This document shows positions 30,403 to 61,200 of a DNA stretch of 64,000 nucleotides, piece by piece (within the stretch, counting starts at the first letter, position 1; each line of letters opens with the position of its first letter). The notes under the pieces were generated by a model, which was not told the DNA's origin, did not search any database, and saw only the letters and a list, made by a program, of their open reading frames with translations. Source of the DNA: an uncultured delta proteobacterium (lineage in GTDB: Bacteria; Desulfobacterota; Binatia; UBA9968); NCBI GenBank assembly GCA_963816145.1, contig CAWFJP010000018.1, positions 64,001 to 128,000 of the forward strand. Reading direction: 5' to 3'. The position numbers were made by a program, and so were the translations under genes.

Positions 30403-30403
30403 T

Positions 30404-34406: not shown

Positions 34407-34443
34407 GAATCGCTTCTAGCCGCTCGATCCGGATCGGACCAAG

Positions 34444-35232
34444 CTATATTGCGGGATCTTCAACGGTTTCGTCCCAAACAAGAGCGTTTTCCGAGCTTAG
34501 AGCCGCCTTTTCACCTACGGACTTGCCCGCGTAAGCTGCCGCCGGTTCCCGCAGAACGTAACTTCCTTGCACTTCGATCAACTCGCGATGTCCGGCCTTG
34601 AAGCCACGCTGATTCTGGACGTTCTCGACAAACGATAGACTGCCCACCGCGATCGATTCCGACCACCGTTCATGACAAGCCGCCAAGCCGTTCTCGATCC
34701 CTCGCTCGATCCACTCACGGTGTGCTCTTTGAAAGTCCTGCAGATCCGAGAATCCACTCAGTTCGCTCAGGCTTCGCAAGTCGATGATTGCGTAACGCTT
34801 CGGCGGCTTTTGGATCTCAGCAAAACCGCTCTCCTTCCACTTCTCAGGGTGACTCACTACCCCGGCACGAACCATGTTCAAGTCAATGTAAACTAAGCAA
34901 CGATTGAGATGTTGGTCGGCTTCGACAGCGGTAGCATGGTAGCGGTCCTGCCAAAATGCCCCGTGGCGTTCTTTGCGCTCATTGTACTCTCGTGCCGTGC
35001 GACCGGCGATGAGCTGCATGCTCTCTGCGATGACGTTTTTGCCGGTATCTTTCACCAGTAAATGAATGTGATTCGATGTCACCATGTAGTCGAGCACGCA
35101 CAAACCAAAACGCTTCTTGGCTTCAAAAAGCCAGTGCAGGTAGCGGCGCCGATCACGCTCAAACTTGAGTAGAAATTCTCTTTGATGGGAGCGGTGTGTG
35201 ATATGCCAGATGTAACCTGGCAGAAAATAAAA
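34444..35232 (-). mobile_element. REP-associated tyrosine (Y1/HUH) transposase, near complete but with the first few codons replaced
   Basis: YFLPGYIWHITHR, HUH motif NHIHLL, FWQDRY, catalytic YIDLNMVRAG. Confidence 0.88.
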
Positions 35233-35300
35233 GCCACCGACAATTCGCTTGCGGCGCAGGATTGTCGTGAAGTAAAAGTCAGACCCCGTGCTTTCCCCGC
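35233..35300 (+). repeat. About 65-bp repeat ending AAAGTCAGACCCC (second copy 44871-44935, partial copy 43935-43966)
   Basis: gccacc..aattcgc...gattgtcgtgaagt(a/t)aaagtcagaccccgtgctttcccc. Confidence 0.75.
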
Positions 35301-35372
35301 CGTGCTTTCCCCGCCGCGCTTTCCCCTGGTCGGTGTGTGACGCCTGTGCAGCTAGCTGGCGGGCCGCGCTGT

Positions 35373-36161
35373 TCAGTCGACCACCGATCGATCGGCAACC
35401 AGCGAGCGCTGGAGCCACTGGAACATCCGCCATCCGACGGGGTCAAGCGCAAGTGTCGATGCCGCAGCCGCAGAGGCTTCGTCGGAGATCGGCCGCCCGT
35501 TCGGCGCTTTCACGTGGACCTCGGCCACCCGTTCGGCCATCACGAACCATCCAACCGATTCCTCCACCGACCGGCCGACCGTGAGCAGGCCGTGGTTGCG
35601 CAGGATGCAGAACTTCTTGTGGCCGAGCGCTGCGGCGATGCGCCTGCCGCCATCGATCGAAAGCACTTCAACTTCCTCATCGTCGAAGAGCGCCTGGTCG
35701 AACACGAAGGCACAGGCCTCCTGACTGAGCGCGCGGAACGGCTCGACGTTGGCCGACCATGGCGTACCGAAGGCGGTGTGGGTGTGAGCTGCGCTGACGA
35801 CGTCGGGACGGGCAGCGAGCAGCGGATGGTGGATGTTGTAGCCGGCCGTGTTGACGGCACCGGTGGCGTTGCCGTCGGCATCCTTCACCTCGCCACCGGG
35901 ACCGACCAGCACCAACTGGTGGACCGTCGCCTGGCTGAAAGGGACACCCCAGTCGAGCAGCCAAAAGTGATCGGTCAACTCAGGGTCACGGGCCGATATG
36001 TGGCCGTCGCCGAGCATCCCCCAGCGCATCGCGCCAAAGATGCGGTATCCAAGCGCACACATCCGCTTGCGGTGCGCCCGTTCGCCGGCAACCGAACGGA
36101 CCGTGCCGTAGGGCTCGACCCCGTCAAACGGTGGATAGGGACTCGTTGTCACGTCGCTCAT
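35373..36161 (-). CDS. Class II aldolase/adducin family protein
   Basis: GHISARDP, IH, AAHTH, LRNHGLLTVG. Confidence 0.9.
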   Translation of the reverse strand: MSDVTTSPYPPFDGVEPYGTVRSVAGERAHRKRMCALGYRIFGAMRWGMLGDGHISARDPELTDHFWLLDWGVPFSQATVHQLVLVGPGGEVKDADGNATGAVNTAGYNIHHPLLAARPDVVSAAHTHTAFGTPWSANVEPFRALSQEACAFVFDQALFDDEEVEVLSIDGGRRIAAALGHKKFCILRNHGLLTVGRSVEESVGWFVMAERVAEVHVKAPNGRPISDEASAAAASTLALDPVGWRMFQWLQRSLVADRSVVD

Positions 36162-36205
36162 GCTACGTCGCGCGATTTAATCGGGTGCAGTCTCGGCTTA
36201 CACTG

Positions 36206-36380
36206 AGTGAAACGGTTGAACATGTTTTTCTTAATATCGCCTCATGCCTGTGTGGTGCGCGCGGCATCGTTTTTCTTAGAGGTCGCTTTTTCGCTTCGAA
36301 ACGCTATCTCTAAGCTCTTAAACAACGCCTTTTAAGCCATCTTATATTGGCAAATCAAGAACTTGCTTGGTCCGACCCGG
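36206..36380 (+). repeat. About 175-bp repeat (second copy 38374-38558) ending in an IHF consensus plus GGTCCGACCCGG
   Basis: Direct alignment of the two copies; AATCAAGAACTTG matches WATCAANNNNTTR. Confidence 0.85.
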
Positions 36381-36582
36381 CGTCGGTCGCCTTTTGTCAC
36401 CCTTTTGGCTAGCGATAACTCTGGCCGGTCGGCTAAGCCGATTCTTACTGTGGCGAAAGCTCAGCGTCAAACTGAAGTCGATGATCGAAACGTCGCATTC
36501 AGAATGATCAAGATTAAAAGGCCTGGCCTCGGATCTTTCCAGATCTTTACCGGTCCGACGCGGAAGTTCAGCTTGAATCGTC

Positions 36583-36611
36583 TTGACCACAAGCTGTCTT
36601 GTATATACGAT
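36583..36611 (+). promoter_or_regulatory. Sigma70-type promoter for brnTA with an inverted-repeat operator
   Basis: TTGACC-17-TACGAT, 6 nt before ATG; ACAAG/CTTGT inverted repeat in the spacer. Confidence 0.65.
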
Positions 36612-36617
36612 TTGCCA

Positions 36618-36893
36618 ATGTTGTATCGGTGCGACGAACGCAAGCGGAGAGCCAATCTCAAGGCTCACAAGCTCGACTTTCGCGATGCACCCGAGGTGTT
36701 TGACGGCCTCACAGTTACTTACGAGGACGATCGATTCGACTATGGCGAGCAGCGCTACGTGACGTTAGGGTTTCTCAAAGGGATTGTCGTTTCCATCGTC
36801 CATACCGAAACCGAAAAACAAATTCGTATTATCTCTTTTAGAAAGGCGACACGAAATGAAGAAGCGTACCTCTTCAAAAGTCTCCAAAACTGA
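36618..36893 (+). CDS. brnT: BrnT family toxin
   Basis: DERKRRANLKAHKLDF, YGEQRYVTLG, IRIISFRKA. Confidence 0.9.
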   Translation: MLYRCDERKRRANLKAHKLDFRDAPEVFDGLTVTYEDDRFDYGEQRYVTLGFLKGIVVSIVHTETEKQIRIISFRKATRNEEAYLFKSLQN

Positions 36894-37134
36894 TTGGCAA
36901 GGACTACGGGCAATGAAGACATCTCAAATCAAGCTATCGAAAGAGCATCCGGAACTTGATCTCAAGCATGTCGCGCGGGCGATTGTTCGCAAGGGCCTGC
37001 AACCTATCCCGCCAAAGACGTCGATCGCGCTGCGGGTCGACGCCGACGTTGTCGAGTGGTTCAAATCCCAGGGACCCGGCTATCAAACGCGCATGAATGC
37101 TGTACTGCGAGCTTTTAAAGAAGCCTCAATTTAG
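36856..37134 (+). CDS. brnA: BrnA family antitoxin
   Basis: KTDW, LRVDADVVEWFK..GPGYQTRMNAVLR. Confidence 0.9.
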   Translation: MKKRTSSKVSKTDWQGLRAMKTSQIKLSKEHPELDLKHVARAIVRKGLQPIPPKTSIALRVDADVVEWFKSQGPGYQTRMNAVLRAFKEASI

Positions 37135-37362
37135 CAGAATCGCTCGCCCGCCTGGTTGCCGCCTTCGGCGAATCGACCCGAGTCGATACGAGTCGCCAAC
37201 CGCCGACGGATTATACGATATCGCGTGAATTTTGTTCGCGCCGCGGGCAATGCGTGCCGCCGCTAAAGTTTTGAGCGAGCTGTCCTCGCTGACAAGGACC
37301 TGACAGCCGCTCGCTTTTTCAACCAGGCTAAGGACCGTGCGGGTTACTTCTCGAAGTGTCAT
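37126..37362 (-). pseudogene. Truncated hypothetical gene (MTLREVTRTVL...)
   Basis: Its start lies inside the 190-bp repeat and it ends against brnA. Confidence 0.4.
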
Positions 37363-37541
37363 GGAGTGATACCATAGCATAAACGGATCAAGCACAAACC
37401 GCCCGCCGTCGGTATGAGACCACGTCATAAGATCGGGTACTGGCGCGAGCAGGCTCAGTGGAAATCGAATCGGCGAGGCAGGTTCATCGGTCGACTGATA
37501 CTTGAGGAGGGATAGTCAATAAAGCAAGGCCAGGCCCAATC
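37359..37541. repeat. 100-190 bp repeat family ending GGCCAGGCC(C)CAATC; copies at 37359-37541, 42257-42360 and 43566-43749
   Basis: Shared gcaggctcag.ggaaa.cgaa...ggtcgact.atacttgagga.ggatagtcaataaa. Confidence 0.85.
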
Positions 37542-37645
37542 ACGTAGCCTCCGTAGCCTGGCCCCCGAGCCTTAATCTGACAAGAGCGTTGCAATAAATC
37601 ATTGGGGTAGAATTTCGCCATGCCTATTGGCTATAATCAACCGCT

Positions 37646-37885
37646 ATGGAGGCTTCGATGGAAGTTTACCCGGGGATAACGATGAACTCGGAAGTGCGCT
37701 TTGGCAAGCCTTGTATCAAAGGCACAAGAATCGATGTTGCAACGGTACTCGGTAGATTTGCCGCAGGCGACAAGATCGAAGACATCCAAGAAGATTATCG
37801 GCTCACGCGAGACCAAGTCATGTCTGCGCTCGCTTATGCTACGCACGTTGCCGAGCATCTACCTCCCGCCGTCAAATCCGCATGA
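37646..37885 (+). CDS. DUF433 antitoxin
   Basis: GKPCIKGTRIDV, EDY.LT; TG-TATAAT just upstream. Confidence 0.9.
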   Translation: MEASMEVYPGITMNSEVRFGKPCIKGTRIDVATVLGRFAAGDKIEDIQEDYRLTRDQVMSALAYATHVAEHLPPAVKSA

Positions 37886-38241
37886 TCATCTTGCTGGATG
37901 AAAACTTCCCACTGCGATTCTATACCAGGCTGCAAAAAGAAGGTCTCGCGGTACAGCACATCCTGCTAACCGATCGCGGCATCGATGACAAGCAGATCAC
38001 CGCTCGGCTGATGCAGGAAGAGATGCTTTTCCTGACACAAGACGAAGACTTTGTCGAAGCTGCGCCCGACTGTAAGGCCAGCATCATCTGGTCTCGTGTG
38101 TCGCAATCGATGGCGATAGACCAACGGGTTGAAATCTGGCTTAACGCCGTGAGGCAGTTCTTTGCCAAACCGTGGAATGAAAACTTCTTTGAGTTATACG
38201 ACGACGGACAACTTCATCCCGTTGAGGTTGTAAAGAGATAG
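37882..38241 (+). CDS. DUF5615 PIN-like toxin
   Basis: ILLDENFP, G.DD, LTQDEDF; ATGA overlap with DUF433. Confidence 0.85.
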   Translation: MIILLDENFPLRFYTRLQKEGLAVQHILLTDRGIDDKQITARLMQEEMLFLTQDEDFVEAAPDCKASIIWSRVSQSMAIDQRVEIWLNAVRQFFAKPWNENFFELYDDGQLHPVEVVKR

Positions 38242-38373
38242 CGGTCTTCGCCGGGTCGGACCAACGACAAAAACCAAACCCACCAGGGATCGCGCCACCA
38301 GCTCGTCAGTGTTGGATTCAAAAGGTCTTGAACGGACCCCGGATTAGATTTGCGGGATTGCACGGCTAGAACG

Positions 38374-38558
38374 GAGTGAAACGGTTGAACTTGTTTTATC
38401 TCACTGTTGCCTCATGCCTCACGCCTAATTGGTGCACGTGGCAGCGGTTTTCTTAGAGATCGCTTTTTCGCTTCGAAAAGCTGTCTCTAAGCTCTTAAAC
38501 AAAGCCTTTTAAGCCAGCTTATATTGGCAAATCAAGAACTTGCCTCGGTCCGACCCGG
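38374..38558 (+). repeat. Second copy of the 175-bp RAYT-end-like repeat
   Basis: CTCTAAG at 38485, IHF consensus 38530-38542, core 38547-38558. Confidence 0.85.
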
Positions 38559-38595
38559 CATCGTCTACTCCGGCATCGTCTACTGCGATGGGCGT

Positions 38596-39615
38596 TCAGA
38601 TTTTGTAAAACCTCTTGGCATTTTCTCCCAGGATCAGCTTCTTGTGTTCATCGCTGATATCATGTCGGTGCTCGATTTCATCGATCTCGTGGCGAGCATC
38701 CTCCATCGGAATTTCATGAGGGAAATCGGACGCGAACATACACGGTTGTGGACCGATAAGATTCACGACACTGGACAGAGCCCTCTCATTTCCCTCACAG
38801 CCGACATAAAAATTACCACTGGTAAAGTAGTCAAGAACTGGCCTTTGGCAGTGAAGCTCGCCGTACTCGTGTTCCCTTTCGAGCCTGTCAACGATCATGG
38901 GAATCCAGCCGGTTCCTCCCTCCATAAACCCCACCCTCAAATTAGGAAACGCATCCCATACCCCATCCTGAATCATCCCTGTCATGGCAATCGCCAGAGG
39001 CATAGGCATCCCTAACGCTCGGGTTCCCGGAAATTTGGTGAAGGTGTTAAATCCGAGATCGCTGTAACTGCCGCCGTGGATGCCAACGGCGCAGTCCAAT
39101 TTTTGCGCTTCCTCGTAAATTGGCCAGAACTCCTTTGCGCTAAGGTGTCTCTTTAGGCCGTTGGAAGGAATGTAAGCGCCAACAAATCCAAGGTCATTTA
39201 CCGCCCGCCGAAGCTCTGCAACGGCACTGGGCGGGTCCTGCATTGGAATCAGAGCCATCGCCTTCAATCGTGGACTTTTTCTCAGATACGTTTCATGAAC
39301 GTAGTCGTTCCACGCTCTGGCGTATGCAACCGCCCATTCCGGAATTACCACGTGACCGTAAGCGAGCGCTGTGGTCGTGTAAAGAACAGTAGACTCTAAT
39401 CCGGTCTTGTCCAAATACTCCAGCCATTGCTCGGGACCGACGTTGAAATCAAATGTGCCTTTTTTTCGCAGCTGCGGAGTATGAAACTCATCTAGGGAAG
39501 GTAGTAATCTTCGCTCTGCGACGGTATCGGCGCTCCTCCAAGGTTCTTCCAGATACCCGATTAAGTCCGCTGCTCTCTCCATAATATGACCGTCAGCATC
39601 AACATAGTGTGGCAT
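38596..39615 (-). CDS. Amidohydrolase_2 family protein
   Basis: VDADGHI, GIHG, EGG.GW, ASDFPH, ILGENAKRFY. Confidence 0.9.
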   Translation of the reverse strand: MPHYVDADGHIMERAADLIGYLEEPWRSADTVAERRLLPSLDEFHTPQLRKKGTFDFNVGPEQWLEYLDKTGLESTVLYTTTALAYGHVVIPEWAVAYARAWNDYVHETYLRKSPRLKAMALIPMQDPPSAVAELRRAVNDLGFVGAYIPSNGLKRHLSAKEFWPIYEEAQKLDCAVGIHGGSYSDLGFNTFTKFPGTRALGMPMPLAIAMTGMIQDGVWDAFPNLRVGFMEGGTGWIPMIVDRLEREHEYGELHCQRPVLDYFTSGNFYVGCEGNERALSSVVNLIGPQPCMFASDFPHEIPMEDARHEIDEIEHRHDISDEHKKLILGENAKRFYKI

Positions 39616-39715
39616 GGTTCTCTCCTTTTACGACCGATCACTTAAAATTCCCCGCTCCGCTTATTCTTGGGTATTGTCGCGAGACTTTTTTCGCGGGCGA
39701 CCCATTCGCCGGACG

Positions 39716-40684
39716 TTACTTCATCGCTTCGTCAACATAACGATTAGTAAATGTCTGTTTGGGGTCCAACTCCTTGGCCTTCGGGCTATCGAGAAATTTT
39801 ATCCCGTTGGCCATCGCCTTCTCGATCGTCAGTAAAGACTCTGGGAAATAGGGTTGAATATATTCCAAGGTAGCCTGAAGGGTCGTCTCGTCTTGAACGC
39901 GGAGGTAGCGGCGCAGAGCTTTTTTACTGACTTGGGCGTCTGTCTTGGCCAAGCGCAACCCCTCGCCCATCGCCCGCAGAAAATTCACCGCCACGTTATG
40001 GTTGCGCGGAATTTTGAGCCAGGATTCCCGCGCCGCCACCGTGGCGTTAGGGTAAAGCCCATACTCGCTGTCGGCTGGTCGAAATAAGGCTTGAAATCCG
40101 GCTTGTTTGGTTTTTAGGCTAAATGGATATCCGAGCATTGCGGCATCGACTGCGCCGTTCGTGAGCGCCGCGAACGATTCAGCGTTACCGCCCGCCTGGA
40201 TGAACAAGACATCGGCTGGTTTCATGCCGCGAGAATCGAGCATCGCAACTGCGGCGAAATAAGTCGATGCGCCAATGCGGCTAACGGCGACCTTTTTCCC
40301 CTTCAAATCGTTGATCGACTTGATCTCGGGCTTGGCCATGCCGTTGATGGTGAGCACTTGCAAGTAACTACCGATGACGGTGAGATCGCTGCCGGCTAGC
40401 CGGCTGGAGACAATTCCCCCGCCGCCGGTCAGACCGATGGAAAATTCTCCAGCCATCATCGCCGAAACGATCAACGGCGTGCCGCCAAAAAACACCGGCA
40501 CGACATCTAAGCCTTGCTTCTGAAAAAGCTTTTCGTCGATCGCAATAAAGAACGGTAGGGTCGCCGCCGTGATCGGTGTGTAGCCGACGGTGAGCTTGAT
40601 GAGATCCGGTTGAGCCGCGTGCGCACGAGCACTGAACACGCAAAGCGTCACTAGGGCGGCGAATTTTAAGACTCGTTTCATCAT
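39716..40684 (-). CDS. ABC transporter substrate-binding protein (NitT/TauT, NMT1-like)
   Basis: Signal peptide (AHA), F.KQGLDV, DLKGKKVAVSRIG, GAVDAA. Confidence 0.88.
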   Translation of the reverse strand: MMKRVLKFAALVTLCVFSARAHAAQPDLIKLTVGYTPITAATLPFFIAIDEKLFQKQGLDVVPVFFGGTPLIVSAMMAGEFSIGLTGGGGIVSSRLAGSDLTVIGSYLQVLTINGMAKPEIKSINDLKGKKVAVSRIGASTYFAAVAMLDSRGMKPADVLFIQAGGNAESFAALTNGAVDAAMLGYPFSLKTKQAGFQALFRPADSEYGLYPNATVAARESWLKIPRNHNVAVNFLRAMGEGLRLAKTDAQVSKKALRRYLRVQDETTLQATLEYIQPYFPESLLTIEKAMANGIKFLDSPKAKELDPKQTFTNRYVDEAMK

Positions 40685-40961
40685 TCTCTCCCCAGCTACA
40701 CTCAATAGGTGTTGAACCACGTTGGGTCAATTTTTCTATTGCCGCGCACGCCCCCGCGACTCCACGCCAGCGTTACTTCAGCGGTTCGTCAACAAACCGT
40801 TTTTACCTTTATTATAGAGTCTGACTTGGATGCAACTGTTTTGCGCGCACAGAGAGAGGACGGAAGGATCAAGGAACAGAGAAAATCAAATCCACCCGAC
40901 ACGAGGATTGGAGATCCCCAGCACCGGTAACCGACGCCCCATCGATTCGGGTCGGACCAAG

Positions 40962-41527
40962 CTATGTCGCGGCATCTTCAACGGTTTCGTCCCAAGCAAG
41001 AGCGTTTTCCGAGCTTAGAGCCGCCTTTTCACCTACGAACTTGCCCGCGTAAGCTGCCGCCGGTTCGCACAGAACGTAACTTCCTTGCACTTGGGTCACA
41101 TCGCGATGTGCCGTTTTGAAACCAAGCTGATTCCGGACGTTCTCGACAAACGATAGACTGCCCACCGCGATCGATTCCGACCACCGCCGTTGACGAGCCG
41201 CCAAGCCGTTCTCGATCCCTCGCTCGACCCACTCACGGTGTGCTCTTTGAAAGTCCTGCAGATCCGAGAATCCACTCAGTTCGCTCAAGCTTCGCAAGTC
41301 GATGATTGCGTAACGCTTCGGCGGCTTTTGGATCTCAGCAAAACCGCTCTCCTTCCACTTCTCAGGGTGACTCACTACCCCGGCACGAACCATGTTCAAG
41401 TCGATGTAAACTAAGCAACGATTGAGATGTTGGTCGGCTTCGACAGCGGTAGCATGGTAGCGGTCCTCCCAGAATGGCCCATGGCGTTTTTTGCGCTCAT
41501 TGTACTCTTGTGCCGTGCGGCCGGTGA
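40962..41527 (-). mobile_element. RAYT/Y1 transposase, 5'-truncated copy (HUH motif lost)
   Basis: Long identical stretches with 34444-35010; cut at the promoter of the adjacent TA pair. Confidence 0.88.
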
Positions 41528-41556
41528 TTGCACACCAATGTGCAGTAATGTACAAT
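41528..41556 (+). promoter_or_regulatory. Promoter of the phd/vapC cassette
   Basis: TTGCAC-17-TACAAT with a TGCAC/GTGCA inverted repeat. Confidence 0.65.
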
Positions 41557-41580
41557 CCGGCTGATGGAGGGCGAACGTTT

Positions 41581-41811
41581 ATGATAAGTCTATCGTTTAC
41601 TGAGTTTCGAAGGAGAGCGTCAGAAATTTTGACTCTCGTCGAAAAGGGTGAAACGATTCGTGTCGTTCGCCACGGCAAGACAGTGGCGAAAATCATTCCG
41701 GCTGACACCGAAGAGAAAATTCCGGCATGGAAGCGACCCGGTTTGAGACTAACCCGTCCGGGCGCATCGCTCAGCAAGGCGATTTTGCAGGAAAGGCGAA
41801 AGTCACGTTGA
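41581..41811 (+). CDS. Phd/YefM family antitoxin
   Basis: SFTEFRRRASEILTLVEKGETIRVVRHGKTVAKI. Confidence 0.88.
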   Translation: MISLSFTEFRRRASEILTLVEKGETIRVVRHGKTVAKIIPADTEEKIPAWKRPGLRLTRPGASLSKAILQERRKSR

Positions 41812-42227
41812 ACGTTTTCTTCGATTCATCGGCCCTGGCTAAACGATACATTGAAGAGAAAGGAAGCGATCAAATTCAAGCGATCCTCTCTTCTGCTTCA
41901 ACTTTAGCCGTCTCGGTGATCTGCGTTCCAGAAATCGTCTCGGCTTTATGCCGCCGTCGGCGCGAACGCAAACTGTCAATTGAAGAGTACCGAAATGCCA
42001 GGGCATCGGTACTTTCGGACATCGACGACGCTACGGTCATCGGCCTTACTGAGGAAGTGATCGCTCAGGCGGTGGCGCTGCTTGAGCAGTTCTCCCTCGG
42101 TAGTGCGGATGCCTTACATGTCGCCTGCGCCTCGGCGTGGTCGACAGACCTGTTCGTTTCTGCCGACGACCGTCAGTGTACAGCCGCTAGAGCGCACGGT
42201 CTCCGAGTCGAAGCCATAAGGGTATAG
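41808..42227 (+). CDS. vapC: VapC (PIN) toxin
   Basis: FFDSSALAKRY, DALHVA, FVSAD; TTG start overlaps the antitoxin stop. Confidence 0.88.
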   Translation: MNVFFDSSALAKRYIEEKGSDQIQAILSSASTLAVSVICVPEIVSALCRRRRERKLSIEEYRNARASVLSDIDDATVIGLTEEVIAQAVALLEQFSLGSADALHVACASAWSTDLFVSADDRQCTAARAHGLRVEAIRV

Positions 42228-44199: not shown

Positions 44200-45169
44200 A
44201 AAGATTCACCGCCCTTCCAACTGAATTATGAATCCCCGTCGTATCAGGGTTCCCGACACGCACTTTCGCCTAATTGGCAGCCGGGTGTGGCTGGAGAACC
44301 AGACGAGATTTTGATCCAAGCCACAGAGACTGCTCGACTAACTCGAGATACCAGCGAATGCGCGATTCATGGCCAGGTTTGGCAATCACACAATCTCGTA
44401 GTGCAAGACGCGACCCCGATTCCGATTCTTTCAAATCGCCGCATCGGCAACTTGAAAACCGTTTGCACGGAGTGAACCCAGGTTTATTTTAGACGGGCCG
44501 AGTAGGAGTGGATTAAGCCGCCCTATCCTTCGCAGCAGCCGCCACATTGAGAGCTTCCTTCTTGGTCTTGAAATACTCCCGTTTAGAAAGCCGATTCGCT
44601 TGCCGCTTGCGGCGCTGTGAATTGCGTTTAGCGTTCTGATTCATTCGAGTGCCTCCATGCGCTGAGTTTCCGAACTGTCTGTACACGTCTATCAATACCA
44701 CCATGGAACAACAATCTCCCGCTGTCTAGACGAGGGCGGCTGTCCCGCACTCTCATCGAGCGTTGCGATATTTCGAGAAGAAGTTGCCTTGGTCCGACCC
44801 GGCGTTACTCTGGCCTGCCGCTATGGAGTCTTTCGAGCTGTTAGTTGAGCACTTTCCGGTCGAAGGCAAAGCCACCGGAATTCGCATGAGGCGCAAGATT
44901 GTCGTGAAGTTAAAGTCAGACCCCGTGCTTTCCCCGAGTAGGTCGCAAAGACCGTATCGAAGGGCTTGAACGATTGGAACAGCCTTCGGTACTTTTTTGG
45001 CTTTGCTCGCCCCATCGGCTGTCTGATACCCTCGCCGAGCTTGCCCAGCAACTGAAACTTCATTACTCGATGCTCAGCCGAATTCTTAAAAAAGGATAAG
45101 ACAAGCAAGAGTAAAGATCTGACCCTCGTCGTTTGCTCACCTCTCCGACCCTCATCTCTCATCTCAAAA

Positions 45170-45249
45170 AGGAATCTCTAAGCCCTTAAACGATGCTTTT
45201 TATGCTATGTTCCGTCGTTAAATCAATCAGTTGTTTTGGTCCGACCCGG
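45170..45249 (+). repeat. RAYT-end-like unit (CTCTAAG, IHF consensus, GGTCCGACCCGG)
   Basis: CTCTAAG at 45176, AATCAATCAGTTG at 45221-45233, core at 45238. Confidence 0.8.
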
Positions 45250-50417: not shown

Positions 50418-52356
50418 CACGGTAAACTTGTTCTCCGTTAAGCAGGAGCCGGGCGAGTCGTGAAGGAGTTTTTCGCCAGGCGCAAATAGTCGAAGACGGC
50501 GCGGATGTTTCTGTTGAGGCGGCGCATTTTCTGGGTGACGTTTTTGACGCCTTTGGATTGGAGGAGACCGATGGCAAAGCGGCGTAGGCGTGAAATATTC
50601 TCAGGGCCGTAGCCGGTGCGAATGCGACAGCGGTCCTCATCGAAGGCCCAATCGAGAACGTAGTGGCAGCAGTTTTCGATGGTCCAATGGCCCCGGTTGA
50701 TTTCGAGCAAGCGCTGGGGCGAGGCCTGCCCAGGAGAACGGCTGGTAATACCGTAGGCGATTTCACGGGAAGTCTTGCCGGTTTTTTTGTTGAGGGTAAT
50801 CCGTTCGATGGCAAAGGCTTGGCCGAGGTGAGGGAAGTTGAGATAAGCGTTGAGTTCAGTGGTGGTCCAGATTTGCCGAGTTTCAATGCGGCCATGATCG
50901 GGCGGGTCGTGCATGACAAACTGGGGTTGATGGCGATCGTTGAAGAACAGCACGAGATCGTCAAGGAGCGAGGGCTGATTGGCTTTAACCGTGAAGTGGT
51001 AGTGGGCTTTGCGGGTGCGGACCAAGTAGTCGGCGAGTTTACGTTGGGTGAGAAGGGCATCGGCGGTTAAGTCTTTGCCACACAGATCGAGGTCATCGAG
51101 GAGTGGAATGGCCATGCCGATCTCGTTGGTTTGTTTTAGCTCAGAGGTGTCGCCATGGGCGGGCAGCGAGCCGACTTTTTTTGGGTGTAGCAGATCTTGG
51201 AGTGGTGGCCGACCACGCTCATGAGGTGAGTTTGATGGTCGTTGTGATCAAGGGCGTTGCGCATGGTTTTGCCGTCGATAGCGAGGGTAGAGTCCTGTTG
51301 AGCAAAGGCTTGATTGTAACGGTTTAGAGCTTTTTCGAGATCGCTGGGAGCCACCCGGATCATGACATCGCGGATGATCGACTCGCTGGGGACGAGGTAT
51401 AGTCCGTTCACGTAACGGCAGCGAAATCTCTGGCGGGCCCGAGGCGAGAGGCTGTGGGCCCAGTCGGCGATGGCCTTATAGCCGCGCATGCCACACAGAG
51501 TAGCGGCACAAACAATGGCCAGGACGCAAGCGAGCGAATGGCGTCGTCCTTGGGCGCGGCGCGGATCGGGGATATCGGCAAAGAAGTCCCAAAGCGAGAG
51601 CATCTGTTGCGCGGTGAGTTTCATTTTCACAACTCCTTGGCGATACGGAACTGGCAAGACGCAGGCAGCGAGCAGGGAGCGGGCCTGTTGGTGTAAGGAC
51701 TTAACGAAGACTTTTTTCGGTGCGATAGCGGTGTTGCTGTAGCCCTGAGGGGTGCGCCGATAACCACGGGTCAGCCCGAGATAGCTCCAGTTGGCGGATT
51801 GATAGACCGTGCCGACAAAACGTTGGGGGTCGACGAAGGTCTCCAGCAGCAGTAAGGAATGGCCAAAGCGCTCTTGCCAGTCGGCGCACAGCCGCTTGTG
51901 ACACAATGATAGAATCTTGGAGCCGAGATTACGGTGGTGCCAATCGGGGAGGATTAAAAACCGGCTGTTGTTGGCGATCAGTTTTAAACGGTCGTAGTCG
52001 TACTGATGGTGCAAGTCCCAGCCGATCCACTGATCGCGCACGGCACATTTCCAGGCGGCGGCTGAAAACGTCAACAGTGCAATCCACTGATCGTGATAGG
52101 TGGCCACGTACCACAGGGTCTGACCGATCTTGGGTAGATAGCCCAAGTAGTGATGTTCGGTCATCAGGCGACGGTGCAGCGACTCTTCGCTGCGCTCTGC
52201 CACACGGACTTGAACTTGGTCGAGCTTCAACGCTTGCGGCTTCTGCCTTTTCTCGCAAAGTCAGAACCGTTATACAGGATTGTGCAGGGGATGTCCAGTT
52301 GTATCGAGAATCTTCTTACTCACCGCGAGGTTTATTGCCAGGACAAATTCACCCTG
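50418..52356 (-). mobile_element. ISAs1-family insertion sequence (1939 bp)
   Basis: Imperfect TIRs CAGGGTGAATTTGTCCT / CACGGTAAACTTGTTCT; 10-bp target duplication CCTTTGATGT at 50408-50417 and 52357-52366. Confidence 0.92.
50438..52230 (-). CDS. DUF4338-ISAs1 transposase fusion, two frames joined at A_AAA_AAG
   Basis: HHYLGY, RDQWIGW, NNSRFLI, ETFVD (DUF4338); DPRRAQGRRH, AIDGK, TNEI, ADALLTQ, VKANQ, HGRIE, HWTIEN..H..LD..F.ED. Confidence 0.88.
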
Positions 52357-56638: not shown

Positions 56639-56877
56639 GGGAAATTCAATCGCTGCGCTATTCTTAAAAGCGTCCAGGACACGCGTGGTCCTACAGGATC
56701 AGCGGCAAGGTTCTGTTCCGTCAAGCCACTCAAGCCCGGTCGTTCGACTTGGTTTAACTACGACCCGGACAGGCGCTCCGCTCAAGACGTACAATTGCGC
56801 GGGAATGACTCGGACCAAATTTTCGTCACTCTACTGGAATCAGCGGGGAGGTGGCAAGGGGTACTATAACTTGGGGA

Positions 56878-57440
56878 CGTTCCAATAGTTCCAATGGTTC
56901 CATAGGTTCCAACCGGTGACGTCAGGATCGTTCAAAGGTTCAACGACGATTCGCGAGGCTACCGTTCCAATAGTTCCAGCCCTTCGATACGGTCTTTGCG
57001 ACCACTCAGGACGGACGAAATGTTTTAATTGGGGGCCGTTCAAGTCGTTACTCGATCAAGGTCGTCTGAGCCGTTCCAATGGTTCCAATGGTTCCATAGG
57101 TTCCAGCGGTTATCGATCAAGGCGTTCGACCTCGGTTCAATCGTTCCATAAGGTTCAACGACGATTCCGCGAGGCTACCGTTCCAATAGTTCCAGCCGTT
57201 CCAAAGGTTCCAGAGGTTATCGTTCAAGCCCTTCGATACGGTCTTTGCGACCTACTCAGGACGAACGGAATTTCTTAATTGCAGTCCGTTCAAGGCGTTA
57301 CTCGAGCAAAGAACGCAGGTTCCAAGTGTTCCCATCGTTCCAAAGGTTCCAGCGGTTGGCCTTCATAAGGTCGTTCAAGAGTTCCGTTCGGCGGGCTCAG
57401 GGCCTGAGTTTATCAAAGGCAAAAGTTCAAGCGTTCAATC
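56878..57440 (+). repeat. GTTCCA/GTTCAA micro-repeat spacer with two CCCTTCGATACG...CTCAGG units
   Basis: Many GTTC(C/A)A units at 7-9 nt period; related blocks at 58245-58495, 59172-59370, 62273-62530 and inverted at 30410-30460 and 44935-44985. Confidence 0.85.
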
Positions 57441-57514
57441 CTTCATCAGGGCGCCTCACATCCGAGGTCATTCTGTCGTTGACTGGTTTCGCCTCCCCTT
57501 GTACACTTCCCCCC

Positions 57515-57781
57515 ATGAAATTGTCTATCAGTGAAACTCGCAGGCGCTTGCCGGAGCTGGTGCGGCGGGTGCAAAAAAACGCCGAGACGAAGGTCGAGAT
57601 TACCGTGCGCGACGAGGTCGTTGCCGAGCTGCGGCCAGCGCAGGCGCGGCCTGAGCCCGGTGCGGCAGCAAAGAAGCTGCTGGGTCTTATGCACAAGCTG
57701 CCAAAAGGCCGCGGCGCAAAGACCAACGTCTCCGGCCGTGTCAAAGACTACCTCTACGGCTCCGCCGGCACGAATCGCTGA
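57515..57781 (+). CDS. Phd/YefM-like antitoxin
   Basis: LSISETRRRLPELV...ITVRDEVVAEL, DYLYG; TTGACT-17-TACACT 7 nt upstream. Confidence 0.8.
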   Translation: MKLSISETRRRLPELVRRVQKNAETKVEITVRDEVVAELRPAQARPEPGAAAKKLLGLMHKLPKGRGAKTNVSGRVKDYLYGSAGTNR

Positions 57782-58197
57782 TGGCGCTCCCGTCCCGCTT
57801 ATTCTGCGATACGTCATTTTTCTACGCCTGTCTCGATCCCAACGACAGCAATCATAACCGAGCCGAAGAGCTTACAGCCGACGCCGCAGCGTCATCTGTT
57901 ACGTTCGTCACTACTTGGGACATCATCAGCGAGACGGTTACCCTTCTGCGATATCGACTAGGCTATCAACCCGCGCTGCGTTTTCTCGAAGAGATCAAGC
58001 CGCATCTGACCGTCGTAGACTACGGCCCCCATGTGCGACATGAAGCCGAGCGAATATTTCGCCAGCGTGGCCGTAGGCGTCGCCTCTCGTTCTGTGACGC
58101 GATTTCATTTACTACCGTCACCACGCTTTTGGACCATATACCCTGCCTAGCTTTCGATCGAGATTTTCGCGCCCTTGGACTGACGGTGATCGTCTAG
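57781..58197 (+). CDS. vapC: VapC (PIN) toxin
   Basis: FCDTSFFYA, ISETVT, SFCDAISF, FDRDF. Confidence 0.9.
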   Translation: MALPSRLFCDTSFFYACLDPNDSNHNRAEELTADAAASSVTFVTTWDIISETVTLLRYRLGYQPALRFLEEIKPHLTVVDYGPHVRHEAERIFRQRGRRRRLSFCDAISFTTVTTLLDHIPCLAFDRDFRALGLTVIV

Positions 58198-58500
58198 ATT
58201 TCCCCGTTTGCAGAGTCTGTTTCGGTCAGCTTGGAGTCTCCAGCGGCTGGCTTGGATCGTTCAAAGGTTCAACGGTTCAAAAGTTCAAGGTCAGATTCGG
58301 AAGAATACCGTTCCAATAATTCCGGTCGTTTCACCGGTTCCAGCGACTGCTTCGGATCGTTCAAGTGTTGAAGGACGGCTTCGGGCGGACTGGGGAGCAA
58401 AGAAGAAGGCGGAAGGACGGCGGTGATTCCGTTAAGGGTTCCCGTCGGCGGGCTCAGGGCCTGAGTTTATCGAAGGCAAGCGTTCAAGGATTTCCATCTC

Positions 58501-58728
58501 TCAGGCGGCGCCGTACTGACGGACTTCGACCTCGATCCCTGACCGGGCGGCCTCGGCTGCAGATTCTAGCAAGCTCGCGGTGATATCTCCGTCTACGTAC
58601 TCTTCACCGCAATTCGAGCAGATACTCGCGGGGACGCCTCTGAAAACTAGAGTGGCCCCCTCTTTATCCAAGGTGACTGTGACTTTGCCAGGCCGGGTCT
58701 CACCCTTTTTACAAATGACGCATTTCAT
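58501..58728 (-). CDS. YgiT-type/MqsA-like zinc finger protein
   Basis: MKCVIC, VPA.IC.NCGEEY. Confidence 0.9.
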   Translation of the reverse strand: MKCVICKKGETRPGKVTVTLDKEGATLVFRGVPASICSNCGEEYVDGDITASLLESAAEAARSGIEVEVRQYGAA

Positions 58729-59024
58729 GAGGTCTTTCTCCTTTTGAAATCAGCTTCCCAAACATCGGAATCGGGTACATAGGCCGTGATGATGACATGT
58801 TCCTTTTCGTCGAAGTTATCTGCCACGACGATGTGAAGGGGTCGATTGTTATGCCACCCAAGCAAGAGACGGCTTGGATAAGGGGTGTCATCGGGATAAT
58901 CTTCAATGATTTCTCCGGTGGCAATCACATACCGGACTTCCAGTTCGCTGATACTTCGTTGGTACATGCGCTGAATCGCGTGAACTCGAAATACCAACCG
59001 TTCAAAAACCACAACGACACCCAT
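58725..59024 (-). CDS. DUF4258 protein (putative toxin)
   Basis: HAIQRM..R.I, IEDYPDD.PYPS.L, PLHIV, ITAY.PD...W. Confidence 0.88.
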   Translation of the reverse strand: MGVVVVFERLVFRVHAIQRMYQRSISELEVRYVIATGEIIEDYPDDTPYPSRLLLGWHNNRPLHIVVADNFDEKEHVIITAYVPDSDVWEADFKRRKTS

Positions 59025-59395
59025 TAAATCAAATGACCGTTGCCTTGTAGCGACGCAAAATCTTTTTTCTTGAACTCCACTGACAAAGCTTATCTTACGC
59101 GAATCGAGATGGTGATGCCAAGCCTCAGCTCTCCGGATCGGACCCGCCTAACTCTAATCAAGAAACTGGCTCCGTTCCAATAGTTCCTGCCCTTCGATAC
59201 GGTCTTTGCGACCTACTCAGGACGAACGGAATTTTTTAATTGGGGGCCGTTCAAGGCGTTATTCGATCAAGGTCGTCCGAGCCGTTCCAGTGGTTCCAGT
59301 CGTTCCAGGGGTTCCAACGGTTTAACCTCGCGGGATCGTTCAAACGTTCAAGGTTCAAAAGTTCAACGACCGATTCGGAGCGCCGGATTAACGAC

Positions 59396-60148
59396 TTACT
59401 TATGGGGCTGCTCTTGCAGCAGATGGAGATGGTGCACTATCGCTCGGTTTAATTCCGGCGTTGCGATGGGCCGGGAACTCGTCGCCCTGTAGTGGCTGAT
59501 AAATGCGACTAATTCCGCAGAGCGGAGCACCGGAATCGTCGGACTTTTGAGGTTAAGCCGCCCGTTGGGATTTGTGAAAGCCAGTATCGGGTTCACCCAG
59601 GGAATCCTCGCGTGATACTCCCTGAACACGCCGTCGAGGCTGTTCTTGATTGCCATCGCGTTGCGCTTGGCTTGCTTGCTCAGGCTGTCAATCTCCCGCC
59701 GGTTGACATACCAACGATCGCCCCAGCAGCTCACGTAGCCCGAGTAATTCTTGGTTTCGATGACGAAAATGCCGTTGGGACCGATCACCAGATGGTCGAC
59801 GTTGCCGCACCCGTCGGGAAGCATGAGATCGTTGAGCAGGACATATTCGTTGGGCAGCGCCTTGAGCACCTCGGTAGCGGCCAACTCCCCTGCTTTGCCG
59901 GCCTGCCAATTACCCCAGCGCTTTAAGTCGGCTTTGGCGCCGGCGACGACAATGGCGCCGCCAATCAATCCGAGAAGCGGCGAGATCGTCAGAGCCAAAC
60001 CGCCGAAGACAGCGGTACCGAGCGCGACATGGCGCAGAACCAACCAGCCATGCTGTTCGATCCGCCGCTCGGTGAAATCCCCGCCATGGCGCAACAAAAG
60101 CATACCCCGGACACAGGCAAGGCCGATGCCAGGGACTCGGGGATGCAA
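59396..60148 (-). CDS. NERD-domain nuclease-related membrane protein; start uncertain
   Basis: TM helices, G..GE, NVDHLVIGPNGIFVIETKNYSG. Confidence 0.85.
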   Translation of the reverse strand: MHPRVPGIGLACVRGMLLLRHGGDFTERRIEQHGWLVLRHVALGTAVFGGLALTISPLLGLIGGAIVVAGAKADLKRWGNWQAGKAGELAATEVLKALPNEYVLLNDLMLPDGCGNVDHLVIGPNGIFVIETKNYSGYVSCWGDRWYVNRREIDSLSKQAKRNAMAIKNSLDGVFREYHARIPWVNPILAFTNPNGRLNLKSPTIPVLRSAELVAFISHYRATSSRPIATPELNRAIVHHLHLLQEQPHK

Positions 60149-60275
60149 AGTTGGCGCGATTGGCGAATTAAAGAAAAACTCGCAGTACGAAAAAGTTAAG
60201 GTGTAACTCTAACAGACATCCAAGTTTGCCACGACGGGTTACCGTTTGCGACTGGCGCTCCAAGTGAAGCTGTCT

Positions 60276-60622
60276 TCAAGGCGAAGCCGTTAGCTTGCGC
60301 AAAAGGCCGTCGACCTTCGATTTTAGATTCGGAAGATCTCGCTCAATCGCATCCCACACGATGTTCGTATCGATCACAAAGTAGTCGTGGAAAAGGATAT
60401 GCCGCATACCAATAATCTCTGTCCATGGAATATCCGGCTCGTGATCTCGCACCTCGCGCGGCAAGGCGTATGCCGCCTCGCCAATAATTTGGCGATGGCG
60501 CCCGAACCAACTCTGGATTAGCTCGTCCTTTTCAAAAGCCTGCCGCCCGCGTGCGGCGTAGCGTGTTCGATGTTGGCGATCGCATCGAGGATGTCACGGA
60601 GGCGCTCCTTCGGGTCCCTCAC
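60276..60622 (-). pseudogene. HepT/DUF86 (HEPN) toxin, frameshift near 60565
   Basis: L.DILDAI, IIGEAA, IPW..IIGMRHILFHDY. Confidence 0.82.
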
Positions 60623-60909
60623 AAGGACTCCGCTTCTTTCAAGACCCGTTCGCGGATGCGCGGTTTAAGACCATGCTCGGTGACAACGTCGACATTTACT
60701 CCGAGCAAATCTCGTAGCTCCATCAGTAGCCCGCCCAGATCGAGAAGCGTGCGGCCAGGCGCCATATCCAGCAAAAAGTCCACATCGCTATCGGGCCTCG
60801 CGTCGCCGCGCGCCACCGAACCAAAAACCCGAATATTGCGGGCGCCATGCTTGGCAGCTATCGCGCAAATCTCGATCTTGTTCTTTCCTATAAGCGCGGC
60901 GATATCCAT
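60619..60909 (-). CDS. MNT nucleotidyltransferase antitoxin
   Basis: [20 protein letters not shown]. Confidence 0.9.
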
Positions 60910-61021
60910 CGATTCACCTTTCACAAGTCACGAGGCGATATTATCTTCTTTCAGCCCTGGTTTGCCAGCCCAACCGAGGGCCACGTTTTCGTATCAACGT
61001 CATTCGGGTCGGACCCGCCTA

Positions 61022-61200
61022 ACTCTAAGAAATCGTACCGTTTTCATCCCATACAACTGTGTTTTCGAGCCTTAGAGCGTCATTTTCACCGGCAAAATTG
61101 CCCTCGTAAGCAGCACTCGGTTCGCGTAGCAACACCGTTGGCTCGCCGCGTTCGATTGAGCGGTGCCTCGCTTTGAATCCCAGTTCGTTTTGCACTTGCT
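61022..61200 (-). pseudogene. Divergent 3' fragment of a RAYT transposase
   Basis: Reads ...VQNELG...AYEGNFAGENDALRLENTVVWDE, matching the C-terminus of 34444-35232; followed by the core motif. Confidence 0.75.

Follow-up and report, generated by a model that had tools for sequence, protein, structure and literature searches.

Why do two short motifs, CTCTAAG and GGTCCGA, recur as a pair at an almost constant distance in this bacterial DNA? The original prediction had proposed an arm site and a core site, with an abutting IHF consensus, overlapping the 3' coding end of a RAYT gene. All six predicted pairs are present in the window, that is, the whole stretch of 64 kb that was analysed, with start-to-start distances of 62, 61, 62, 62, 62 and 62 nt. 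The joint pattern CTCTAAG-N54/55-GGTCCGA had 6 matches for 0.01 expected, and none of 100 shuffles reached this number. Each motif alone was mildly enriched (CTCTAAG, 11 matches for 3.7 expected, 1 of 100 shuffles reaching 11; GGTCCGA, 18 matches for 11.0 expected, 3 of 100 shuffles reaching 18). The six sites are probably the terminal inverted repeats (about 108 nt each) of copies and wrecks of a TIRtron with one RAYT-like Y1/HUH gene. We report here the anatomy of these ends, their conservation across phyla, their fixed spacing, the constraint on their DNA and the RAYT fold of the enzyme.

Anatomy of the ends

The sequences between the two motifs fall into two types, as had been noticed. Type A (CTCTAAG at 34502, 41020 and 61077, minus strand) spans the last ~25 codons of the Y1 transposase gene or of its remnants, and here the proposed overlap with the RAYT 3' coding end holds. 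Type B (36308, 38485 and 45176, plus strand) is non-coding, and for it the overlap fails. The features of the window are:

34432..34540, minus strand: type A end (coding) of element copy 1 (nhmmer E 2e-30); tip GGTCCGATC at 34432-34440, CTCTAAG at 34496-34502, weak 5' arm GCTTAC at about 34529-34534; transposase stop codon 4 nt before the tip
34444..35433, minus strand: RAYT-like Y1/HUH transposase ORF, 329 aa (Pfam Y1_Tnp E 8e-13; tblastn)
36264..36377, plus strand: type B end (non-coding; nhmmer E 8e-35); arms CTTAGAG at 36275-36281 and CTCTAAG at 36308-36314, IHF-like AATCAAGAACTTG at 36353-36365, tip GGTCCGACC at 36369-36377
38251..38262, minus strand: solo tip (CCGGGTCGGACC on the plus strand), at the left edge of a ~308-bp remnant without a transposase, whose other edge is the type B end 38441-38555
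38441..38584, plus strand: type B end (nhmmer E 5e-33); arms at 38452-38458 and 38485-38491, IHF-like motif at 38530-38542, tip at 38547-38555; 15-nt unit CCGGCATCGTCTACT twice directly outside the tip (38555-38584)
40950..41528, minus strand: type A end and truncated transposase remnant (nhmmer E 1e-33); tip at 40950-40958, CTCTAAG at 41014-41020; transposase residues 142-328, 89% identical (nucleotide match 91% over 300 nt)
45164..45246, plus strand: type B end that has lost the 5' palindrome arm (profile match from position 48 only); CTCTAAG at 45176-45182, IHF-like AATCAATCAGTTG at 45221-45233, tip at 45238-45246
61007..61327, minus strand: type A end and C-terminal transposase remnant (nhmmer E 4e-24); tip at 61007-61015, CTCTAAG at 61071-61077; transposase residues 227-323, 52% identical

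Read inward, an end starts with a near-invariant tip, GGTCCGACC(C), at the point where similarity between copies stops. It is followed by TCAA-N4-TT(A/G) at -15 to -5, by short A- or T-runs, and by an imperfect palindrome of ~40 nt, CTTAnA ... TnTAAG. The 3' arm of this palindrome is CTCTAAG, whose first base is 62 nt before the tip, and its partner CTTAGAG lies 33 nt upstream. CTCTAAG is not an isolated arm site: it belongs to a subterminal palindrome found at both inverted ends.

One end lies inside the last ~30 transposase codons and the opposite one just upstream of the gene start. Relatives have a type A end on one side of the gene and an inverted type B end on the other, both finishing outward in GGTCCGACC, and 26 of the 29 loci with both ends span 924-977 bp. 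In the window element the partner ends have been displaced by insertions, the type B end of the intact gene being ~1 kb off. Genome-wide (7.8 Mb), the tip GGTCCGAYCCG has 25 copies, 13 of them within one 76-kb stretch, CTCTAAG occurs 234 times, and the nhmmer end profiles detect ~21 ends.

Two further sites, 29010/29071 and 30313/30374, had been taken for divergent copies of the pair. They belong to an unrelated direct repeat of ~100 nt, whose two copies are 79% identical, ungapped, and 1303 nt apart, and which showed no similarity to the type A and type B end profiles even with nhmmer --max. Since these are two copies of one separate direct repeat, their equal spacing is trivial. A few more copies of this repeat are found on contigs C2, C3 and C4.

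The distance between palindrome and tip is fixed across phyla

Spacing was measured in 80 loci from many bacterial phyla, with 148 tips, 119 of which have a palindrome. The palindrome-to-tip distance was 62 nt in 101 of these 119 ends, 61 in 4, 63 in 6 and another value in 8, so that 111 ends fall within 61-63 nt; four of the eight off-distance ends are outer copies of duplicated junctions. The canonical tip is missing from 21 loci. Thirty of their ends carry GGNNNGACC, at a distance of 62 nt in 28 cases, 61 in one and 63 in one. Variant tips include GGCCCGACC, and in that subgroup the palindrome falls beyond the stop codon. The stop codon is placed 4 to 35 nt before the tip, with unchanged spacing. 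Non-coding copies and distant phyla thus retain the distance.

The conservation profile of the ends has a best period of 11.0 nt, for type A and type B separately. None of 2000 position shuffles reached the observed value, a significance that is overstated because shuffling positions scatters conserved bases that naturally cluster. Of the periodic patches, four belong to the palindrome itself. A search for covarying pairs within the spacer found none.

The constraint acts on the DNA

Could spacing and motif merely be left over from conservation of the protein in the C-termini of ancestral transposases, as the alternative attached to the original prediction has it? In type A copies, the last ~30 codons do specify conserved amino acids (Y, F, E-K/N, L-R/S, E-N, W). 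However, the non-coding end of every complete element has the same arrangement, which is also present beyond the stop codon in the GGCCCGACC subgroup, and the spacing is constant in spite of the variable position of the stop codon. The encoded tail is moreover predicted to be disordered.

Codon usage in the transposase genes provided a check that had been named from the outset. At the motif, 24 of 24 Leu codons were CTA or TTA; in the rest of these 34 genes the share was 21%. The codon that follows reads AGG, AGC or AGA, by which Arg and Ser are swapped and AG is kept, and the 5' arm has an NCT codon whose residue varies among Pro, Ser and Ala. CTCTAAG is therefore conserved at synonymous positions, and the codon is fixed where the amino acid varies. 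This codon choice shows a constraint on the DNA: a DNA signal overrides codon choice in the transposase's own tail. Contradicted by the spacing, the codons and the copies beyond the stop, the relic explanation is extremely improbable and we reject it. Synonymous-position conservation and the non-coding copies together support the proposal of a two-part DNA site whose spacing is under DNA-level selection.

The palindrome and its possible hairpin

The pairing register i+j=79 is the best one at both end types. Among 45 type B ends, 72.1% of cells pair in this register, versus 35-61% in slid registers, and the covariation score is 0.172, reached by 1 of 500 shuffles, versus 0.128. Double changes were found in 11 of the 17 palindrome pairs, and compensated variants are seen, for instance in loci L104 and L052. 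The five middle pairs are formed in only ~35-65% of sequences, and RNAalifold found no consensus structure (0 pairs) on the 45 type B ends.

In the window, two of the six copies (36270 and 38447) fold better than shuffles: as single-stranded DNA, the end at 36264..36377 gives a hairpin of -8.2 kcal/mol (z -2.6) and that at 38441..38584 one of -10.4 kcal/mol (z -3.0). The three type A copies do no better than shuffles (z 0.12 for copy 1, -0.5 and -0.2), and the end at 45164..45246, with one arm lost, does not fold (0 kcal/mol). With only two copies in six folding better than shuffles, a hairpin is plausible, though the data do not demand one; in another reading the two arms would be inverted double-stranded motifs.

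Role of the IHF-like motif

An exact WATCAANNNNTTR was found, as predicted, at 36353, 38530 and 45221. These are three of the four matches in the window (1.25 expected), and they count as one event, since the three sites are homologous copies of one sequence type. Across loci the exact form occurs in 23 of 109 ends (type B 9/42, type A 4/41, genus set 10/26) and the relaxed form TCAAN4TTR in 19/42, 6/41 and 11/26, respectively. It always stands in the same register, starting at -17. The host encodes both IHF alpha (NF001401, 122 bits for a cut-off of 111) and IHF beta (NF001222, 122.3 bits for a cut-off of 115). The fixed register, the consensus match and the host genes speak for the predicted abutting IHF site; its exact consensus, kept in just 23 of the 109 ends, speaks against it, so that IHF binding is no more than possible.

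In the model first proposed, IHF would bind WATCAANNNNTTR next to the tip and bend the DNA, so that a protein held at the distal motif could reach the tip in an arm/core complex. We regard this model as possible but doubtful. It is favoured by the exact consensus in all three type B ends of the window, in the fixed register, with a variable N4 flanked by conserved ATCAA and TT, by the IHF genes of the host, and by the 11-nt periodicity, which fits a protein lying along one face of duplex DNA. Boccard and Prentki 1993, an entry in the reference list of PMC6006769, also deals, by its title, with the binding of IHF to REP-containing RIB elements of E. coli. However, the exact form is present in a minority of ends, as is the relaxed form, and the motif is absent from all three type A ends of the window, so that at most one end per element would be bent. 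The exact form was found in 0 of 15 ends in hosts labelled non-proteobacterial versus 13 of 68 in others, which could be a sign of IHF dependence, though with small numbers, related sequences and labels taken from metagenome bins. As an added host factor, IHF is compatible with the TIRtron-end explanation.

Type B ends, upstream of the gene, preserve the motif better than type A ends do, and there it might equally be a -35 box. More generally, the conserved parts might serve transposase expression, the palindrome forming 5' and 3' stem-loops of the mRNA that control its stability or translation. ATCAA, read on the other strand as TTGAT(A/T), would then be the -35 box of an inward promoter. In compact relatives the type B palindrome indeed ends ~15 nt before the start codon. 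A promoter-like pair scoring at least 9/12 was found in 18 of 42 type B ends versus 2 of 41 type A ends, and in 11 of those 18 the -35 starts at -12, as the complement of the IHF-like motif. Expression leaves unexplained, however, the near-invariant tip and the 62-nt distance at both ends, as well as the same arrangement at the 3' end, within or beyond the coding region. A promoter scan of the window (12 sites in total, versus 6.5 +/- 2.5 in shuffles) found no inward site at type B ends, where the only site was an outward TAAACA-18-TATATT at 36319 and 38496. We therefore hold a role in expression to be quite improbable as the reason for this conservation.

The transposase

The ORF at 34444..35433 is the sole full-length RAYT-like Y1/HUH transposase ORF of the genome (tblastn). 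The part conserved in relatives is 34447-35232, and the last ~29 residues are encoded by palindrome and spacer. H55 and H57 (HUH) and Y98 are invariant among 34 sequences. An AF2 model of the protein (pLDDT 82.7; below 50 for residues 234-262, the end-encoded tail, predicted disordered) has as its closest fold 4ER8, the E. coli RAYT bound to a REP hairpin (Z 14.5, rmsd 2.5 over 154 residues; runner-up Z 7.3), with a Foldseek match at E 4e-6. The enzyme is thus an HUH Y1 transposase with the fold of the E. coli RAYT, and not a lambda-type recombinase acting on arm and core sites; no Phage_integrase domain was found in the 15 + 47 = 62 ORFs scanned between 26.7 and 64 kb of the window.

A proposed mechanism

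By analogy with the solved complexes of RAYT and IS608, the transposase would recognise the palindrome, probably extruded as a single-strand hairpin, and would break and join the DNA at the tip. The 55 nt between palindrome and tip would be a spacer of required length, and the conserved patches every 11 nt suggest a protein lying along one face of the duplex, which may bring palindrome and tip together. In solved Y1 systems cleavage takes place ~10-20 nt from the hairpin. To our knowledge a hairpin-to-cleavage gap of 55 nt is without precedent, which counts against this best explanation.

In favour of a break at the tip, tandem repeats adjoin its outer side in 19 of 105 ends versus 3 of 315 control positions, their start falling within tip positions 8-12 in 11 of 15 cases. 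On the other side, a search for an empty site, which would fix the exact element edge and the target and reveal mobility, found none. In its full form, which we think rather unlikely to hold, the proposal is that TIRtron ends would be sites of nucleoprotein assembly, ~108 bp long, with no known parallel among characterised HUH transposon ends. The palindrome, or a cruciform or hairpin, would be held by the Y1 transposase, and the duplex, contacted on one face every 11 bp and possibly bent by IHF near the tip, would bring the enzyme to a cleavage site at a distance of 55 nt. The short tandem duplications that start at the outer tip edge in about one end in five would be marks left by repeated nicking there and, if this is true, a readable record of activity in genomes.

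Comparison with known systems

The window element belongs to a known kind, the TIRtron or TIRYT (Di Nocera, De Gregorio and Rocco 2013, PMC3733652). In the portions of that paper drawn on here, a RAYT-like HUH/Tyr gene lies between long terminal inverted repeats (TIRs), without REPs; a TIR may reach into the gene at its 5' or 3' end, and the elements have low copy number and occur in many phyla. The relatives likewise have a Y1/HUH gene with a catalytic Tyr and long inverted ends, and no REPs. A tip motif, GGGGWSAS, is described there for 'some' TIRs: the relative L089 reads GGGGTCAC on the other strand, an exact fit, and the window tip read inward, GGGGTCGG or CCGGGTCGG, matches at 7 of 8 positions. 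The same portions mention TIRs and some self-complementary tracts, but not the 62-nt subterminal palindrome, the 11-nt periodicity, the codon override or the IHF-like motif.

Subclass 2.1 of TnpA(REP), which the consulted parts of Quentin et al. 2018 (PMC6006769) equate with TIRYTs, comprises long RAYT-like proteins that have a C-terminal extension and lack REPs in their vicinity, features shared by the protein studied here. According to the same parts, the defining feature of the subclass is an HTH-like domain at the C-terminus (Bac_DnaA_C, HTH_23 or HTH_28), whereas Pfam searches up to E 10 gave no match to these three in the whole window protein, its C-terminal 148 aa or four relatives.

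REPtrons (RAYT with REPs or REPINs, such as E. coli TnpA(REP), 4ER8) have the same protein fold and a gene between inverted palindrome-bearing copies. The element described here differs in having no high-copy REP population and in its ends of ~108 nt with the palindrome far from the tip, and its protein scores 67.3 bits with NCBIfam REP_Tyr_transpos, under the equivalog cut-off of 80.

IS200/IS605 elements (IS608, ISDra2) also have a Y1 HUH transposase; their subterminal imperfect palindromes are recognised as hairpins, and they are not known to make target duplications. The hairpins of IS608 are on the same strand, whereas the ends here are inverted repeats. The protein is longer (~255 versus ~150 aa; NF033573, 29 bits for a cut-off of 55), as is the palindrome-to-tip segment (~55 versus ~10-20 nt). 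With IHF-assisted transposon ends and lambda attP the ends share a host-factor consensus, here a candidate IHF site, close to the site of strand exchange, and distant motifs at fixed spacing. Those systems use DDE transposases or tyrosine recombinases on duplex DNA, whereas no integrase was found among the 62 ORFs scanned here.

TIRtrons, named in 2013, have been little studied, and no mechanism is given in the parts of PMC3733652 and PMC6006769 drawn on here. The family now gains a precise end anatomy, with an invariant tip, a palindrome 62 nt inside, patches every 11 nt and a host-factor-like motif. If the spacing is functionally required, an HUH/Y1 enzyme would use a long structured end where a hairpin beside the cut is the rule, and such an end would bridge single-strand mechanisms of the IS608 type and those of the transpososome type. 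With the ~108-nt end profile and the tip, TIRtrons and the derivatives that lack a transposase can be annotated in genomes and metagenomes, in which such elements are at present labelled 'transposase' or left blank.

Six paired sites are inverted ends of a TIRtron

According to the original prediction, CTCTAAG recurs at six places 61-62 bp upstream of a core GGTCCGA, with intervening sequences of different types, three of them carrying an abutting IHF consensus. All six places were found exactly as reported. CTCTAAG has 11 matches in the window and GGTCCGA 18, a mild enrichment of each word taken singly, and the joint motif CTCTAAG-N54/55-GGTCCGA occurs 6 times versus 0.01 expected, so that the six-site observation is real and beyond chance. 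The six intervening sequences form two types, A and B, of three copies each. In all three type B copies the exact consensus ends 3-4 nt before GGTCCGA, and these copies account for three of its four matches in the window. The "divergent copies" at 29010 and 30313, which had been added to the series, belong to a different direct repeat of about 100 nt without similarity to the end profiles, and this part of the observation therefore falls. That repeat (29002-29110 and 30305-30405, 79% identical) is unrelated to the TIRtron ends and has weaker copies on contigs C2, C3 and C4 of the genome; the 1.3 kb between its two copies contains no Pfam-annotated ORF.

The six sites reflect conserved, structured inverted ends of a known, barely studied class of elements, the TIRtrons, in which a RAYT-like Y1/HUH transposase gene (the TIRYT) lies between long inverted ends, here of about 108 nt. 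The outermost, near-invariant bases of an end are called hereafter the "tip" (canonical form GGTCCGACC). The features in the window are:

34444-35433, minus strand: ORF with the Pfam domain Y1_Tnp, the sole full-length copy in the 7.8-Mb genome; its conserved part, of 262 aa, is encoded by 34447-35232
40968-41528: transposase remnant
61040-61327: transposase remnant
34502, 41020 and 61077, minus strand: type A copies, at the 3' end of the gene or gene remnants
36308, 38485 and 45176, plus strand: type B copies, non-coding, each with exact WATCAANNNNTTR
38251-38558: transposase-less remnant of 308 bp

The window copies are atypical: the intact gene lies about 1 kb from the nearest type B end, and the second copy is interrupted by about 3 kb with PIN-domain genes. 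A match to the transposase was present in 17 of 61 searched genomes of the same genus and family. There, a type A end and a type B end, inverted relative to each other, enclose the gene, the former covering its last codons and the latter lying just upstream of its start, and both terminate outward in the canonical tip. A scan of one genome per species gave 225 relatives, from which 80 loci were retained. According to their record titles, these belong to delta-, beta-, gamma- and zetaproteobacterial bins, Binatia, Scalindua, Pirellulales, Bacteroidota, Spirochaetota, Acidobacteriota, Nitrospiria and Calditrichia. The inverted A/B arrangement recurs in these loci. Both ends were present in 29 loci, with a tip-to-tip length of 924-977 bp in 26 of them. 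One type B end came from an unpublished genome (locus L016, genome G005), on which no claim rests.

The best fold match of the transposase was the E. coli RAYT bound to its REP hairpin (4ER8, Z 14.5, rmsd 2.5, 154/165 residues; Foldseek E 4e-6), far above IS608 TnpA (Z 7.3). It was found by fold comparison only, as the PDB sequence search gave no match. Scores against the NCBIfam models stayed below cut-off, both for REP_Tyr_transpos (67.3 bits, cut-off 80) and for IS200 (29 bits, cut-off 55).

CTCTAAG is one arm of a palindrome at a fixed distance from the tip

CTCTAAG had been suggested to act as the arm site of an arm-site/core-site architecture. It is half of a palindrome, of which the other half, CTTAGAG, lies 33 nt upstream in type B ends, and between the two T-runs oppose A-runs (for example CTTAGAGGtcGCTTTTTcggttcAAAAAGCcaCCTCTAAG). 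Among distant relatives (83 ends), pairing was best in the palindromic register at both end types (means of 0.65 and 0.69, versus 0.39-0.58 when shifted). Among 45 type B ends, 72.1% of cells were paired, versus 35-61% for slid partners, and changes on both sides were seen in 11 of 17 palindrome pairs. The covariation score in the same set was 0.172 versus 0.128, a value reached by 1 of 500 shuffles. Fully compensated variants also occur, such as CCTTACGTGACACA..TGTGTCACGTAAGG in locus L104.

The transposase may recognise this palindrome as a hairpin. The poorly paired middle of the stem counts against a strict hairpin, and RNAalifold returned no consensus structure on the 45 type B ends. Folding was better than in shuffled sequences only in the two complete type B copies of the window (z of -2.6 and -3.0), and no better in its three type A copies; the third type B copy has lost the 5' palindrome arm. 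The sole Rfam match in 27-64 kb, at E up to 1, was a chance lncRNA, and therefore no known RNA family covers the ends.

The ends show a fixed spacing and selection at the level of DNA. The fetched loci contain 148 tips, 119 of them with a palindrome of 14 bits or more. Among these 119 ends, the spacing between the CTCTAAG equivalent and the tip was 62 in 101, 61 in 4, 63 in 6 and another value in 8, of which four are outer copies of duplicated junctions. The predicted spacing thus extends to the relatives, including those with another tip: 21 loci without the canonical tip carry GGCCCGACC (25 ends), GGTCAGACC (2), GGTGTGACC (2) or GGCTCGACC (1), at a distance of 62 in 28 ends, 61 in one and 63 in one. 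These 21 loci (within L043-L109), a sister group with GGCCCGACC as its main tip, are mostly labelled Desulfobacterales, and their right-hand palindrome lies beyond the stop codon.

The alternative put forward for this spacing was a relic of protein-level conservation in ancestral RAYT C-termini. In 34 coding sequences, the Leu codon within the motif was CTA (16) or TTA (8) and no other, whereas over the rest of these genes the two account for 21% of Leu codons. Where the residue is not Leu, GTA or ATA is used. AGG, AGC or AGA follows, so that Arg and Ser alternate while AG is kept, and the codon in the 5' arm is NCT, for Pro, Ser or Ala. The stop codon stands 4 to 35 nt before the tip, varying among relatives. 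In the AlphaFold model (pLDDT 82.7), confidence is high as far as residue 233 and falls below 50 for residues 234-262, exactly the part encoded by palindrome and spacer. With codons fixed, the stop position variable and the encoded tail of low pLDDT, CTCTAAG is therefore conserved at synonymous positions and the protein relic fails.

The sequence between palindrome and tip is itself weakly conserved (mean column identity 60%), and no further covarying pairs were found in it, either as a second hairpin or as guide-to-cleavage-site pairing; the raw mutual-information list was left unused, being dominated by differences between types A and B. Over the 100 nt inside the tip, conservation had a best period of 11.0 nt in the type A and type B sets separately (patches CTTAnA, T5, A5, TnTAAG, A4, T4, TCAA and TTAnCTT), under a generous shuffle control and with four patches belonging to the palindrome. 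Such a period would fit an end whose DNA is wrapped.

An IHF-like motif in fixed register

The IHF-like motif has a constant position, with its start at -17. Ends with the exact consensus numbered 9 of 42 (type B), 4 of 41 (type A) and 10 of 26 (genus set), and those with the relaxed form TCAAN4TTR 19, 6 and 11, respectively. In the host, the equivalog models for IHF alpha and IHF beta both have matches above cut-off, and one HU-like gene is also present. None of 15 ends from hosts labelled non-proteobacterial had the exact form, versus 13 of 68 in the rest, which is suggestive, although the numbers are small and the sequences not independent. The reverse complement of the motif, TTGAT(A/T), could instead be the -35 box of an inward promoter. 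Among the 42 type B ends, 11 have it as the -35 of their best inward promoter-like pair, versus 2 of the 41 type A ends. In the two complete type B ends, the promoter scan of the window gave outward-facing sites and no others. Under the IHF reading, the protein would assist at the end.

The tip as a candidate breakage site

Similarity between copies ends directly after GGTCCGACC(C). Short, variable tandem repeats directly outside the tip were detected at 19 of 105 ends, versus 3 of 315 random positions. Their units are 6-20 nt long, in 2-6 copies; they begin at tip positions 8-12 in 11 of 15 exactly scored cases and often duplicate the tip's final bases. One case lies in the window (38555-38584), and others are at loci L035, L040, L050, L052, L058, L062, L064, L066, L070, L077, L090 and L105. 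Whole junctions of 33-54 nt are duplicated at L041, L045, L065 and L093. We infer that the tip is the breakage site, where the transposase would cleave; repeated nicking at its outer edge, followed by faulty repair, could yield the tandem repeats.

Symmetry is lacking in GGCCCGACC, the most frequent variant tip, so that a functional 4+1+4 palindrome in the tip (GGTC c GACC) was rejected as a conserved feature. No empty site was found on comparing locus L002 with 41 genomes and by blastn of its flanks: in genomes G003 and G000 only the left flank is conserved, and the right one is a different repeat with three copies in G014. At L002 (G014:C5, about 2400; also G014:C3 and C2), the start of a sequence at least 1.4 kb long, which occurs three times in G014 at 100% identity, falls within the tip of a type B end. 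This sequence may be another mobile element inserted at or beside the tip.

Comparison with published TIRtrons

In the portions of the two papers considered here, TIRtrons and TIRYTs are RAYT-like genes with long flanking TIRs, some of which have a common GGGGWSAS and some of which overlap gene ends (Di Nocera et al. 2013, PMC3733652), and subclass 2.1, characterised by a C-terminal HTH, is equated with the TIRYTs (Quentin et al. 2018, PMC6006769). The window tip read inward, GGGGTCGG, matches GGGGWSAS at 7 of 8 positions, and locus L089 fits exactly. No HTH domain of the kind defining subclass 2.1 was detected in the window transposase. The same portions of PMC3733652 and PMC6006769 make no mention of a fixed-distance palindrome, periodic conservation, codon override, an IHF-like motif or junction duplications.

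Genomic surroundings and variant forms

Of 25 tip sequences in the genome, 13 lie at positions 58-134 kb on the contig holding the window (C18), where toxin-antitoxin and restriction genes are abundant. An integron-like cassette array was considered in view of this clustering, and rejected, since tip orientations are mixed and the tips form pairs, as the inverted ends of transposase copies. The low-GC stretch that houses the copies (51-54%, 36363-63000) also contains many toxin-antitoxin and defence genes: BrnT, DUF433/DUF5615, three PIN genes, an AbiEii fragment, type I restriction-modification pieces, MqsA/DUF4258 and NERD. In an ORF at 51139-52230 (minus strand), a DruA-like domain (Druantia, E 9e-28) occurs together with a DDE_Tnp_1_assoc domain (E 1e-20). 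Repeat families D1, D3, D4 and I1-I4 share a 9-nt GTTCCANNN periodicity (56849-57400, 58280-58340, 59172-59352 and 62244-62560, with an inverted partner at 44932-44980), and some adjoin tips preceded by TTAGGCG (59138, 62244).

Contigs from four metagenome runs (X1, X2, X3 and X9) were placed on 34000-38800. They are short pieces; none spans the interval, and no clean excision product was found among their variants. One contig each in X1 and X3 departs from the window at 35229 and continues into type-B-like sequence (..GGCATCGTCGTTCCTTA), a compact arrangement absent from the window copy. In X1, X2 and X9, contigs join 34632 to 38311 via 38 other letters, so that one end of each type is present, the transposase is absent and the left flank is the same.
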